DNA from: a phage
Strand: one strand, 5' to 3'
Length of the DNA stretch: 64,000 nucleotides
Sequence record: PV730299.1
Shown: positions 5,801 to 53,802 of the stretch, piece after piece
Layout of the letters: each line of letters opens with the position of its first letter
How positions within the stretch are numbered: position 1 is the first letter of the stretch
Position numbers and translations under genes: made by a program
The notes under the pieces: model-generated
What the model was told of the DNA's origin: nothing
What the model saw: only the letters and a program-made list of their open reading frames with translations
Databases searched by the model: none

Positions 5801-5808
5801 GTGGTGCC

Positions 5809-5843
5809 TCCAGGGTTATATGTGCTGCTATTATAACCCTGGA
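5809..5843 (-). promoter_or_regulatory. perfect 12-bp stem-loop overlapping the Shine-Dalgarno region of the DNA ligase gene
   Basis: TCCAGGGTTATA-11 nt loop-TATAACCCTGGA; 3' arm on mRNA strand runs into GGAGG SD; no U tract. Confidence 0.4.
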
Positions 5844-5923
5844 GACTTCAATATATTATCAGGGAACGAATCTCAGCACTCAGCGACGGTATACAGAACA
5901 ACCAGTTGATAAACTTTATCATG

Positions 5924-6136
5924 TCACTTCCTCATCAGTGAGAGCAGATTGACCGTAGCCGGGCGCGCATCAGGGGCGTAGAAGACGTCCTGAGAGTGCC
6001 TCTTACAGCACGGGCAATCCTTCGTGGCGATTACACAGGGAGCCTTGTCCACGGCAAATCCAGCGGCTTCGGCTTCCTTCACAGTGGTGAATGGCATGTA
6101 GGCACTTGTGCCCTGCCCTCCGCATGAACATTCCAT
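5924..6136 (-). CDS. small Cys-rich protein
   Basis: 70 aa with CSCGG...C...CPCC cysteine cluster; ORF-track start is TTG, taken here from following ATG with AGAGGAAA RBS. Confidence 0.35.
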   Translation of the reverse strand: MECSCGGQGTSAYMPFTTVKEAEAAGFAVDKAPCVIATKDCPCCKRHSQDVFYAPDARPATVNLLSLMRK

Positions 6137-6248
6137 CAACGTTTCCTCTTAAAGGGGATGACCAGGGCTATGATGAGAAGCATAGCTGTAATCATCCCAC
6201 ATGCTATCAGACCAAAGGCGAACGACTTCAGAACAAACTCAATCAAAT

Positions 6249-7442: not shown

Positions 7443-7521
7443 TTCCAGCCTCATGATGTAGTTGTAACTCTTCAATACAGATTAAATATTAGGCGATTAT
7501 TTCTTGAAAGTAAAGTTATTG

Positions 7522-7550
7522 AAGTAAAAAGCCCAGTACTTGACTGGGCT
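7522..7550 (-). terminator. rho-independent terminator
   Basis: Hairpin GCCCAGT-acttg-ACTGGGC followed on minus strand by TTTTTAC; downstream of gene 7569..7883. Confidence 0.6.
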
Positions 7551-7568
7551 TCTTGGTGTTCGATTGAC

Positions 7569-8234: not shown

Positions 8235-8298
8235 GATGTGCTCCTAGTTTACATTCAGATCATAGAATTATACCCTATGACCCGCTTTATTGAATTGC

Positions 8299-14471: not shown

Positions 14472-14492
14472 AAACTGCTCCGATAAACAAAA

Positions 14493-14515
14493 GGAGCTGC
14501 TATTATAGCAGCCCC
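14493..14515 (-). terminator. rho-independent terminator
   Basis: About 10-bp stem (GGGGCTGCTAT / ATAGCAGCTCC, one G-U) followed by TTTTGTTTATC; TATAAT within loop; directly upstream of kinase gene RBS. Confidence 0.55.
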
Positions 14516-14546
14516 TTCATCTATTGAACAGTTTCTGAACTTAAAT

Positions 14547-19488: not shown

Positions 19489-19507
19489 GCGGGGTAATTA
19501 TACCCCG
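19489..19507 (-). terminator. hairpin terminator candidate
   Basis: GCGGGGTA-atta-TACCCCG(C) downstream of gene 19521..19760; weak U tract. Confidence 0.4.
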
Positions 19508-20251: not shown

Positions 20252-20552
20252 GGAACACCCCCACGGTTGTCAGTACGAAACGTACCATAATGATAACCAG
20301 CAACATCACTGTAGAAAACACTACACGCTTGATCATTTTATCGCGCATGTGGATGAACTGATATGAGAGGATAGCCTCGGCCTGTTGATCGGCACGAACG
20401 TTCGTGTCACGATGTGGGGATAGTGTGTAGAAGTTGATCTGGTACACATACGCATGAACCAGAGTGAAGAACGACTTCACCCAGACCAAGACAACCACTA
20501 ACAACAAAGCGAACGTCAGGAAGTTCGCCAACAACCAATAATCGACCATCAT
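20238..20552 (-). CDS. membrane protein
   Basis: 104 aa with two hydrophobic helices. Confidence 0.4.
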   Translation of the reverse strand: MMVDYWLLANFLTFALLLVVVLVWVKSFFTLVHAYVYQINFYTLSPHRDTNVRADQQAEAILSYQFIHMRDKMIKRVVFSTVMLLVIIMVRFVLTTVGVFHAAV

Positions 20553-21139
20553 ATACCTCTGTTGAAGTCTGGATTATTCTCAATGAAGTAAGAGCCACAA
20601 GCCATTATCGCAAACGAATCCACGAGGTCATCGATTGGCTTAGGATCCTTAACTTCCAACATATCCATTATACCGCGCATGCTAACATTGAACAGTGACT
20701 CGAAGTGAGCGATCATGGCGTGTTTATCCGCGTTGCCCTTGTCGGTGAACATCTTCTTCACATGGGATGGCGTCACGATCTGGAAGTCAAAATTGTTACG
20801 GCGCAGGGCTTGCTTCAACAGTGAGGTATTCTCTGCGGTCTGGCATATGTTGTTGGAGTTCTTAGAGTTGCCCATAGCATACCCTTCAAGAGTGATCACA
20901 TCCGGCTTCTCAGTCAACAGGACAGCCTCAGCCCATTTACAAATGTTATAGAAGCGTTCTTCTGGGGTCTCCCACTTCGGTTGCTTCATGATAAGGATAT
21001 TCTGACGAATCTGAGTGCAGTACTTCTCCACAGTATAATATGCGTAGAAGCGCAGATGATCAAAATCAAGAGGGTCTTTGTCATCCCAGAAGCACAGGGA
21101 TGGACAGCCATAGGAGTAGTCGATTCCGCAATATTTCAT
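20549..21139 (-). CDS. RuvC-like Holliday junction resolvase (tentative)
   Basis: 196 aa; N-terminal CGIDYSYG, ITLEGY and C-terminal DDLVDSFAIMACGSYF resemble RuvC/RNase-H-fold resolvase catalytic blocks. Confidence 0.5.
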   Translation of the reverse strand: MKYCGIDYSYGCPSLCFWDDKDPLDFDHLRFYAYYTVEKYCTQIRQNILIMKQPKWETPEERFYNICKWAEAVLLTEKPDVITLEGYAMGNSKNSNNICQTAENTSLLKQALRRNNFDFQIVTPSHVKKMFTDKGNADKHAMIAHFESLFNVSMRGIMDMLEVKDPKPIDDLVDSFAIMACGSYFIENNPDFNRGI

Positions 21140-21140
21140 G

Positions 21141-21183
21141 TAAATAGCCCATAACGAAGTTTCATTGGTGTATGGGCTATTTA
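21141..21183 (-). promoter_or_regulatory. 13-bp stem-loop immediately upstream of RuvC-like start codon
   Basis: TAAATAGCCCATA-17 nt loop-TATGGGCTATTTA ending 1-2 nt before ATG; no obvious SD. Confidence 0.35.
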
Positions 21184-21190
21184 CGCCGGG

Positions 21191-26431: not shown

Positions 26432-26499
26432 GATATAGTTCCTGCTTTTAATTTGTGGCGAATGCCAATGAATTACTGGGAAGTATAAGCGCAGGGATT

Positions 26500-26530
26500 A
26501 TAGAAGTAAAGCCCCTCAATGAGGGGCTTC
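26500..26530 (-). terminator. rho-independent terminator
   Basis: 9-bp stem AAGCCCCTC/GAGGGGCTT followed on minus strand by TTACTTCTA; downstream of NrdH-like gene. Confidence 0.55.
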
Positions 26531-30227: not shown

Positions 30228-30310
30228 GGTGTTCCTCGGGTTTGTTTACGCAGGTTTTATTATACGCCACCCTCGTAGATTGAAGGCGGCGGGGAGGGTT
30301 GGCGAGTTAC

Positions 30311-34181: not shown

Positions 34182-34423
34182 TAGATCTTCTGCCTCTGGA
34201 ACACTTCGGTCACAGTATAGTCTACACCACGACTTTGAGCTATACACAGTTGTTGCCAAGCCCTATACAAAATATTTGTTTACCAGCCGTGTAGTGTTCG
34301 AAGTGGGCGAAGCTGTCCAAGAGATTCATGTAGCTGCGCATGTGACGGGATAAAGATTTTGCTCATTGTCCTTTCCTTTCGGTGAATAATGAGCAAAATT
34401 ATATGCCTTTATTTCGTATTGAC

Positions 34424-46199: not shown

Positions 46200-46967
46200 A
46201 TGGCACCCCGCGCATATCGTTTCAGTCTCACCGCCCCGCAGATTGAGCAATTGCTCCTCTCTATCTATGATGCTATCAAGTCAGAAGATATCATCTATGA
46301 TTATGCTGCAGGTGGGACTGCTGGACAAGTCGCAGCAGCGTCTGCTGTCAAGAACATGTGGTTGAAGCTCAACGAGATGGTGACAGGCCAAGGTCTCAAA
46401 GATGCCATCAACGATGCAGAAGACAGCAACGTGTTCACCGACTATTATAAGTCTTTACTGGATCGCGAAGGCTGGAAATTTATTGGATCTCCAGCAGATG
46501 AACTTCAGCGAGGCGACATCGATACTTCGAACTTCAAAGGTGGTGAGGTCATTCTACTTCAGAAGAACGCTTCGGGCAACCCAGAATTCCAATACTGGAA
46601 GCGAACCCCTGTTGCTGGGGGTGATCCTACCTTTGCATGGGCTTCGGTCTATGAAGGGAACTCCAATGATTCCAGCATAGAGATTCCCGTGGTTGGCACC
46701 AGCGTACTCAAGGACATCCCCAAGGCACTCTTCCATATGATCGAGTTCAGAGTGCATGTGTACGATGAGACACTGGGTCATTGGCAAGACACCGACGGGA
46801 AGGTGGGGTATCGTGGCGAGGATCTGATCTACAGTGTATACAACCATATTCAGACCAAACCTCTCGCCACCATTGACTTCAGCCAAGATACGGACAATAT
46901 GACGGTTTCTGTGACGTCGTTGGAACCGAATGTCAAGTGCCATCTGTCCTTCGTTGCGGGTTACTAA
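46200..46967 (+). CDS. hypothetical protein, probable late gene
   Basis: Start at MAPRAY (AGAGGAA RBS); TATAAATA box 35 nt upstream; plus-strand gene between minus-strand RNase H and helicase genes. Confidence 0.5.
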   Translation: MAPRAYRFSLTAPQIEQLLLSIYDAIKSEDIIYDYAAGGTAGQVAAASAVKNMWLKLNEMVTGQGLKDAINDAEDSNVFTDYYKSLLDREGWKFIGSPADELQRGDIDTSNFKGGEVILLQKNASGNPEFQYWKRTPVAGGDPTFAWASVYEGNSNDSSIEIPVVGTSVLKDIPKALFHMIEFRVHVYDETLGHWQDTDGKVGYRGEDLIYSVYNHIQTKPLATIDFSQDTDNMTVSVTSLEPNVKCHLSFVAGY

Positions 46968-53743: not shown

Positions 53744-53802
53744 GATATAGTCTCTTGGTTTCAAATAGACGGGGTAATCATACCCCGCCCAAAGTTATAG
53801 AA

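Follow-up and report, generated by a model that had tools for sequence, protein, structure and literature searches.

The 64,000-nt stretch of phage DNA analyzed here (sequence record PV730299.1; hereafter the window) carries on its minus strand a gene for an ATP-dependent DNA ligase, whose ATG lies at 5800-5798 and is preceded at 5809-5843 by the palindrome TCCAGGGTTATA-11 nt-TATAACCCTGGA. A preliminary description made from the sequence alone had reported this palindrome as a stem-loop at the ligase Shine-Dalgarno (SD) sequence, and it is present as stated. Around the palindrome, the sequence matches Escherichia phage A221 and related Ackermannviridae (ViI-like myoviruses) at 98% identity, and a 3.2-kb query matched ~240 records of phages with hosts in Escherichia, Shigella, Salmonella, Klebsiella, Dickeya, and others. 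Our results indicate that the stem-loop buries the whole SD of the ligase mRNA and belongs to a strongly conserved regulatory cassette, suggesting that the ribosome-binding site (RBS) may be masked on read-through transcripts, with a promoter inside the hairpin supplying the translatable ligase mRNA.

The stem-loop at the start of the ligase gene

The palindrome is confirmed and is not a chance feature. Two perfect inverted repeats of at least 13 bp (loops of 3-20 nt) were seen in the window, against 0.017 expected per dinucleotide-shuffled window (60 shuffled windows, only one of which contained any). The repeat before the ligase gene had been described as a perfect 12-bp stem; it is indeed perfect, but it comprises 13 bp (CTCCAGGGTTATA / TATAACCCTGGAG, 5808-5820 / 5832-5844, with an 11-nt spacer), and on the ligase-sense (minus-strand) RNA the ViennaRNA fold lengthens the stem to 15 bp by U.G and G-C pairs, with 5846-5832 paired to 5820-5806 (GUCUCCAGGGUUAUA / UAUAACCCUGGAGGC). 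The order along this RNA is GAUAAUAUAUUGAA GUCUCCAGGGUUAUA AUAGCAGCACA UAUAACCCUGGAGGC ACCAC AUG. The folding energy, proposed earlier as a check, is -24.6 kcal/mol compared with a shuffle mean of -10.3 kcal/mol (z -5.29), and 0 of 200 shuffles were equally stable, while the antisense RNA folds more weakly (-22.7 kcal/mol, z -3.1). The SD is masked on the ligase mRNA strand as anticipated, but not in part: all five bases of GGAGG (5807-5811) are paired within the 15-bp stem. The coordinates of these features and of those discussed below are given in Table 1.

Like an intrinsic terminator, the element is a stable intergenic stem-loop between two same-strand genes. Unlike a terminator, it has an A/U-rich stem top, includes the SD of the downstream gene and, as had been correctly noted, is followed by no U/T tract on either strand; because this tract is lacking and the terminator scan made no call at the hairpin, a terminator identity was rejected. 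The Rfam covariance models gave only chance-level best matches (E 0.24 and 0.4; 20 bits vs thresholds of 45-62). A dispersed-repeat identity of the arm motif was also ruled out, since its six matches in the window (up to two mismatches) are at chance level, a count reached by 9 of 100 shuffles, and the cassette is single-copy in each genome.

Table 1. Features of the ligase cassette and of the related hairpins in the window (numbered from its first nucleotide)
Feature	Coordinates	Strand	Evidence
ATP-dependent DNA ligase, 476 aa	4370..5800	-	Pfam PF01068, E 2.6e-15; DNA ligase annotation in relatives
SD GGAGG of ligase (GGAGA in most relatives)	5807..5811	-	RBS annotation in phages Marshall, Mooltan, and Menlow
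Complete RNA stem-loop, 15-bp stem and 11-nt loop	5806..5846	-	Minimum free energy and conservation in 17 variants
3' arm UAUAACCCUGGAGGC, holding the entire SD	5806..5820	-	
Loop AUAGCAGCACA	5821..5831	-	Column variability in alignment
Invariant AC, 7-8 nt past the -10 box; A5823 is the predicted start	5822..5823	-	Inferred
Putative -10 hexamer TATAAT, sigma-70-type, perfect	5830..5835	-	Invariant in 24/24 cassette sequences
5' arm GUCUCCAGGGUUAUA; final four bases are the first four of TATAAT	5832..5846	-	
Conserved box TATTGAAGTC, adjoining the perfect repeat on its 5' side; the 15-bp stem begins with its final 3 nt, GTC	5844..5853	-	
Remnant open reading frame (ORF), 24 codons; stop TGA 5850-5848 inside TATTGAAG	5848..5922	-	Comparison with A221
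A/T-rich box: GATAATA here, AATAAT(C/T) in relatives; 5' limit of conservation	5854..5860	-	
ruvC hairpin, perfect 14 bp, GTAAATAGCCCATA-N17-TATGGGCTATTTAC, directly before the ATG of a RuvC-like resolvase (20549-21139)	21140..21184	-	
Third hairpin, 12 bp; TATAAT (34403-34398) adjoins 5' arm ATTTTGCTCATT; 3' arm AATGAGCAAAAT holds ATG (34366-34364)	34356..34403	-	

Conservation of the cassette and its upstream boundary

About 35 ligase loci from IMG/VR, GenBank phages, and one metagenome were compared, of which the metagenome scan gave only two. The conserved unit is larger than the hairpin alone. It is a co-linear stretch of ~60 nt in the order A/T-rich box, TATTGAAGTC, stem-loop, GGAG(A/G), 6-8 nt, and ATG, and the palindrome would be the core of this compact, ligase-specific cassette. 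In a blastn search with the 73-nt cassette, exactly one site per record was found in 265 phage records, always at the ligase start. The cassette is absent in Serratia phage Kevin (Miltonvirus, 53% ligase identity) and in Vibrio phages of ~157 kb (36-38%).

Conservation begins sharply at the A/T-rich box, beyond which the upstream sequence and the neighbor gene vary among phages, and at least four different kinds of upstream context were found. Relative to A221 (L002 2055-2806), a deletion of ~750 bp in the window has removed one gene and most of another. Its right end adjoins TATTGAAGTC, and the 24-codon remnant ORF left behind ends 1-2 nt before the stem. The A/T-rich box, which in Kuttervirus directly follows the stop codon of the upstream gene, is the deletion junction in the window phage, and the cassette is an indel boundary. 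A conserved translational coupling to the upstream ORF was rejected, because the upstream gene and the distance from its stop codon to the stem vary among phages.

The hairpin itself is maintained across these relatives. Standard pairs on the sense strand make up 92.9% of the 255 stem cells in the alignment of 17 distinct variants, compared with 25-55% after a shift of the 3' partners by 1-3 columns and with 86.3% on the antisense strand; the strand difference is due to G.U wobbles, by which four stem positions vary and which are paired on the ligase-sense RNA only. One stem pair is found as A-U, G.U, and G-C across the variants. The stem length is 14-15 bp in every variant, and an equivalent hairpin was predicted in all six genomes folded, from four genera, with z from -3.8 to -6.0. 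Variant L017 differs at two bases midway along the 5' arm, yet its stem refolds as 8 bp, a bulge, and 3 bp. The stem arms and the boxes are nearly invariant, whereas 6 of the 11 loop positions and the spacer between SD and ATG vary, and the ATAACCC of the 3' arm is invariant despite the variable loop and spacer that flank it. The invariant loop positions are the first two bases, AU, which finish a TATAAT hexamer, and A5826, A5823, and C5822. On these alignments, the divergence covered (ligase identity of at least 80%) is too shallow to prove RNA-level selection from the ligase hairpin alone, because more distant relatives lack the cassette and the metagenome added only two loci.

The preliminary description had favored translational control or RNase processing over termination. 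The masked SD, the conservation across four genera, and the rejection of a terminator agree with the first of these roles, but the RNase site found no support. RNase III or another double-strand-specific nuclease might part the ligase mRNA from the upstream message, and a stable intergenic hairpin right before the ligase gene would suit this purpose; in T7, RNase III processing (R1.3) occurs upstream of ligase gene 1.3. However, RNase III substrates usually have ~20 bp, corresponding to two helical turns, and the stem of 14-15 bp is shorter than this. Cleavage within the stem would hit the SD or the adjoining bases, and no related family was found in Rfam. Processing of this kind is thus extremely improbable at the ligase start.

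Masking of the SD and the promoter-like element in the hairpin

Read-through transcripts from the upstream genes are expected, because the stretch from the upstream terminator to the ligase gene contains neither a predicted nor an annotated terminator. In the window, an upstream terminator/promoter lies at ~7490-7551, and no terminator was predicted on the ligase strand between 7529-7551 and ligase. Similarly, genes 157-161 of phage Marshall run into ligase with no annotated terminator after 46227-46245, and the 61-nt cassette is the sole sizeable gap in this run of genes.

Opening the region from SD to AUG costs 9.1-14.6 kcal/mol on RNAs that contain the 5' arm, or 7.8-15.2 kcal/mol over starts 70 nt upstream and at TATTGAAG, compared with 2.5-5.5 kcal/mol on RNAs that begin at the predicted +1 (7 of 7 variants tested). 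An RNA starting in the loop (from 5826) folds with -1.3 kcal/mol (z +1.88) and is less structured than 199 of 200 shuffles. For hairpin-masked RBSs, such an energy gap implies very poor translation. Judged by the modeled energies, the hairpin would therefore repress ligase translation, and an mRNA bearing it should translate ligase very poorly. Simple modulation of a single mRNA species is unlikely, because the masking covers the entire SD and a stem of this strength should make the mRNA nearly untranslatable. Since the masked mRNA would be poorly translated and ligase is essential, a hairpin-free mRNA route seems to be needed, and an internal promoter would supply it.

The preliminary description had overlooked an element that may provide such a promoter. 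The hexamer TATAAT (5835-5830) runs from the upper end of the 5' arm into the loop, of which it takes the first two bases, and is invariant in the cassette sequences (Table 1); these two loop bases are invariant although they are free of pairing constraint. The 6-nt stretch after it is variable (AGCAGC, AACAAG, TGGATT, ATAACG, AGCATG, and others) and is followed by the invariant A-C. In sequence terms, TATAAT-N6-A is the layout of a -10 box, a discriminator, and a +1 purine, suggesting a translated ligase mRNA whose 5' end lies within the loop and which therefore does not fold into the hairpin. In variant L017, the two stem changes yield TGGTATAAT, an extended -10. Perfect TATAAT is 3.6-fold enriched in intergenic DNA, with 13 of the 30 copies in ~12% of the window. 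The ligase -10 box ends 29 nt from the ATG; four other coding-strand TATAAT boxes (8272, 14507, 30264, and 34403), which are retained in Marshall, end 30-32 nt from their ATG and have (T/G/C)TC(A/T)AT 14-16 nt upstream in the window. For a fifth conserved TATAAT (19502), the distances are 12 nt to the upstream element and 75 nt to the ATG. Promoter activity and the start at ~A5823 are inferred from sequence only, because no 5'-end mapping was found for ViI-like phages.

Taken together, two classes of ligase mRNA are proposed. Transcripts that read through from the upstream genes would carry both arms and fold the 15-bp hairpin, so that the SD is buried and ligase stays untranslated; the hairpin may also slow or attenuate the read-through. 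The promoter with the -10 box TATAAT would start transcription at ~A5823, inside the loop, and the short transcripts would contain the 3' arm only, form no hairpin, and have an open 23-nt leader, thus serving as the translated ligase mRNA. In this way the cassette might tie ligase expression to its own promoter and insulate it from the variable upstream genes. We give this T4-style combination of RBS masking on read-through transcripts and an internal promoter for translatable ligase mRNA about an even chance of being correct (roughly 50%).

Several observations weigh against this interpretation. The strict sigma-70 consensus scan of the window called no promoter at the ligase cassette. The -35-like hexamer, (T/A)TCTAT in relatives and ATATAT in the window (5851-5856), lies 15 nt before TATAAT and probably accounts for part of the conservation of TATTGAAGTC, yet it is a poor -35. 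The retention of TATAAT could come partly from four of its bases being stem bases. In addition, ViI-like phage DNA has modified bases at thymidine positions according to the CBA120 paper, so promoter reasoning based on consensus sequences may fail to transfer to it, and the searchable literature held nothing usable on transcript 5' ends or RNA-seq for Ackermannviridae or Kuttervirus. As for the structure, covariation in the ligase stem was not significant (one pair changed on both sides, a result matched by 102 of 500 shuffles), and some substitutions break pairs (columns 16-50 and 27-39), which are unpaired in some clades. As an alternative -35 for the internal TATAAT, TTGAAG was rejected because its spacer would be 10 nt, and (T/A)TCTAT at 15 nt fits better.

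The hairpin could instead be a post-transcriptional element only, in which TATAAT is kept as stem and loop sequence and a single hairpin-bearing class of ligase mRNA is switched on by a trans factor (for example, a helicase or a protein that binds the RNA), by a cut within the loop, or by ribosomes ending on the upstream ORF. This would agree with the conserved masking of the SD, and A5826, A5823, and C5822 could be contacts of a protein or RNase; the remnant ORF of the window, which ends 1-2 nt before the stem, would fit the last of these routes. There is also a precedent in the T4 gp43 operator, which combines a hairpin and an RBS and has an AC on the 3' side of its loop (PMC3014915). However, free variation is seen at the remaining 6 of the 11 loop positions, the hairpin matched no RNase-type or Rfam motif, and two facts would be left unexplained, namely the invariance of the two loop bases that complete TATAAT and the promoter boxes at the 5' arms of two unrelated hairpins in the same genome. 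We consider such a purely post-transcriptional role unlikely.

The stem-loop might also act as an attenuator or insulator that stops or pauses transcription from upstream, as in promoter-early stem-loop (PeSL) cassettes, or as a stabilizer of the 5' end of a transcript begun at the A/T-rich box. PeSL stem-loops cut the expression of a downstream reporter like a strong terminator (PMC2839356), but the ligase hairpin lacks a U tract on both strands. For the stabilizer, all variants have an ATAAT-like box 0-7 nt before TATTGAAG, and a comparable arrangement, TAATAT/TATTAT-TTAATCT-TATTGAAG, precedes a 394-aa ORF where a promoter is annotated in LIMEstone1. However, the A/T box lies at varying distances from the other parts of the cassette, and a transcript from TATTGAAG still has its SD fully masked, so it could not express ligase alone. 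Both versions are therefore rather improbable as the main function of the hairpin.

A third possibility concerns the palindrome as DNA, where a dimeric phage or host regulator might bind over the ligase -10 and repress or activate the promoter. A perfect 13-bp palindrome that overlaps a -10 box would suit such an operator, and nearly all variants keep the symmetry of its inner core, GGGTTAT-N13-ATAACCC. Small proteins encoded nearby are annotated as transcriptional regulators in relatives, and I-TevI is a precedent for an operator that overlaps a promoter within such a hairpin (a work cited in PMC3014915). However, the outer arm positions are asymmetric as DNA in most relatives and are still G.U-paired in the sense RNA, and the 84-aa neighbor protein matched no DNA-binding family by Pfam or PHROGs. 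The two sibling hairpins described below are unrelated in sequence, so one binding protein cannot explain the class. Only a single such palindrome is present per genome segment and its half-sites occur at chance frequency, and an operator regulon was rejected for these reasons. An operator function is thus very unlikely.

Some further observations were made on the boxes around the cassette. The 8-mer TATTGAAG / CTTCAATA is over-represented, with 12 exact copies in the window (for example 5853(-), 7477(-), 7517(+), 32812(+), 39231(+), and 63179(+)), and the 10-mer TATTGAAGTC has 117 matches with up to two mismatches, compared with 56 expected. Where it lies on the coding strand, CTTCAATA is usually located after terminators in promoter regions, and the opposite orientation is found in the ligase cassette and in the leader of the 394-aa ORF. 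A -35-like element or a factor site are candidate roles for the TATTGAAG 8-mer. TTTACT-N17-TATACT (26482-26510, minus; conserved in Marshall) has a T4-like early-promoter geometry right after a terminator hairpin, and TTTACT-N17-TAATAT (7486-7514, minus) has the same geometry and likewise follows a terminator hairpin, at a site annotated in LIMEstone1 as 'putative middle promoter'.

Related hairpins and comparison with known systems

The only other perfect palindromes of at least 12 bp in the window, at 21140-21184 and 34356-34399, have the same architecture as the ligase element, in that the 5' arm contains or adjoins a promoter box and the 3' arm holds the SD or AUG, and both show compensatory changes across genera. 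In the ruvC hairpin, the 5' arm holds the late-promoter-like TAAATA, where the authors of LIMEstone1 independently annotated a putative late-promoter -10. In LIMEstone1, Marshall, and Menlow, one G is missing from its 5' arm together with the matching C of its 3' arm, which is a compensated indel. The third hairpin has GCCCATT/AATGGGC in Marshall and Menlow and GCTCATT/AATGAGC in the window, corresponding to a swap of T-A to C-G. By these alignments, the sibling hairpins give the covariation support that the ligase stem lacks. Because the siblings share the architecture and show compensatory changes, a general RNA-level mechanism is more parsimonious than three unrelated protein operators. The gene behind the third hairpin (homolog of Marshall_117 / LIMEstone1 ORF077, ~205 aa) is reduced in the window to a 28-codon remnant by an internal deletion, and its promoter and hairpin persist.

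Other coding-strand -10 boxes lie in or beside stem-loops at 8261-8279, 14491-14517, 19491-19506, 30265-30291, and 53770-53787 (minus). They include GGGGTATAATTACCCC, CGGGGTATGATTACCCCG, and a T-tract terminator with TATAAT in its stem, and four of the stem-loop-linked boxes have TTCAAT 12-16 nt upstream. The stem at 30265-30291 shows compensatory changes from CGCCGCC/GGTGGCG to CGTCGCC/GGCGACG in Marshall. The CBA120 and AG3 genome papers state that no early or middle promoters could be recognized in ViI-like phages, and these boxes are candidate members of that promoter class. A bolder proposal is that ViI-like promoters form a structure-linked class whose -10 lies within a stem-loop, and that the stem-loop, as extruded DNA or as a fold of nascent RNA, takes part in promoter recognition or in a switch specific to the phage. 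On this view, the hairpins of ligase, the resolvase, and gene 117 would best exemplify a genome-wide, family-specific code coupling transcription and translation, and not simple T4-style masking. We regard this proposal as highly speculative and improbable.

A Cys-rich ORF of 71 aa (5924-6139, minus; PHROG 4789, of unknown function) is a conserved upstream neighbor of the ligase gene. In other loci (L024 543-2240; L025/L026 ~493-798), it is annotated as a ligase fusion (Serratia phage Kevin) or directly adjoins ligase (Vibrio relatives). These arrangements suggest that the Cys-rich ORF is functionally linked to ligase, perhaps as a zinc-binding accessory. In addition, ORF086 of LIMEstone1 (L042, 36408-37022) is annotated as 'putative RegB'. 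T4 RegB cuts GGAG within SD sequences. If a RegB-like nuclease is really present in the ViI-like family, burial of the GGAG in the stem may also shield the message.

By the account of the ViI-like genome papers, next to nothing is known of their early and middle promoters or of their post-transcriptional controls, and these phages are widely used as candidates for biocontrol and therapy. The ligase cassette, its two siblings, and the (T/G/C)TC(A/T)AT-N12-16-TATAAT family are concrete conserved candidates for promoters and for promoter-dependent translation in Ackermannviridae. The cassette also suggests how an essential replication gene might keep its own control while upstream genes come and go.

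An RBS-masking hairpin with an internal promoter is known from T4, and no description of one was found for Ackermannviridae. In the T4 genes e (lysozyme), soc, 49 (endonuclease VII), and I-TevI, long early transcripts hide the SD/AUG in a helix (PMC3014915; McPheeters et al. 1986), and short transcripts that are translated well arise from promoters located in the DNA for the 5' strand of this helix (PMC3014915). The elements described here share with them the SD/AUG in a stable helix, a promoter-like box in the 5' strand, and the recurrence at several genes, and the ruvC hairpin parallels that of T4 gene 49, which also encodes a Holliday-junction resolvase. There is no sequence homology between the ligase cassette and the T4 elements. 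The internal promoters of T4 are late ones (gp55) with TATAAATA and serve genes needed late, whereas the ligase element has TATAAT and precedes a replication gene; the sibling ruvC hairpin, unlike the ligase element, has the late-like TAAATA. The sigma-70-type TATAAT and the replication gene make insulation from upstream read-through likelier than early-to-late timing as the purpose of the ligase element.

The translational operator of gene 43 in T4 and RB69 is another hairpin with an overlapping RBS. It is bound by the DNA polymerase gp43, and the AC on the 3' side of its loop is important (PMC3014915). The ligase hairpin resembles it in covering the RBS region of a replication gene and in its conserved 3'-side loop bases, including AC. 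However, the gene 43 operator has a stem of ~5 bp and an 8-nt loop that are recognized in a sequence-specific manner, while the ligase hairpin has a 15-bp stem and a mostly variable loop.

The layout of the ligase cassette, with a stop codon in an A/T-rich stretch, promoter boxes, stem-loop, SD, and ATG within an intergenic gap, is similar to that of PeSLs, which have been described in T4-type phages (RB49/phi1, T4/PST, and KVP40/nt-1; PMC2839356, PMC4122927). In PeSLs, the stem-loop often lies over the -10 box, and the cassettes are located at gene indel junctions between close relatives (PMC2839356, PMC4122927); similarly, the ~750-bp deletion relative to A221 adjoins the ligase cassette, which has several different upstream neighbors. 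Literature searches found no PeSL-type description for Ackermannviridae, PeSLs being described in T4-type myoviruses. A genome with PeSLs carries many near-identical copies of them, on which their proposed role in recombination is based, and PeSL promoters have near-consensus -35 and -10 boxes with N17, whereas the ligase cassette is single-copy and combines a weak -35 at N15 with a perfect -10. Set against PeSLs, the ligase cassette also has the SD itself inside the 3' arm of the stem. The cassette would thus work like the T4-type hairpins and PeSLs, but it is not classed as a PeSL because it is single-copy and has a weak -35. If the T4-type logic is true, the device serves in these phages an early or replication gene with a sigma-70-type promoter, and not late genes alone.

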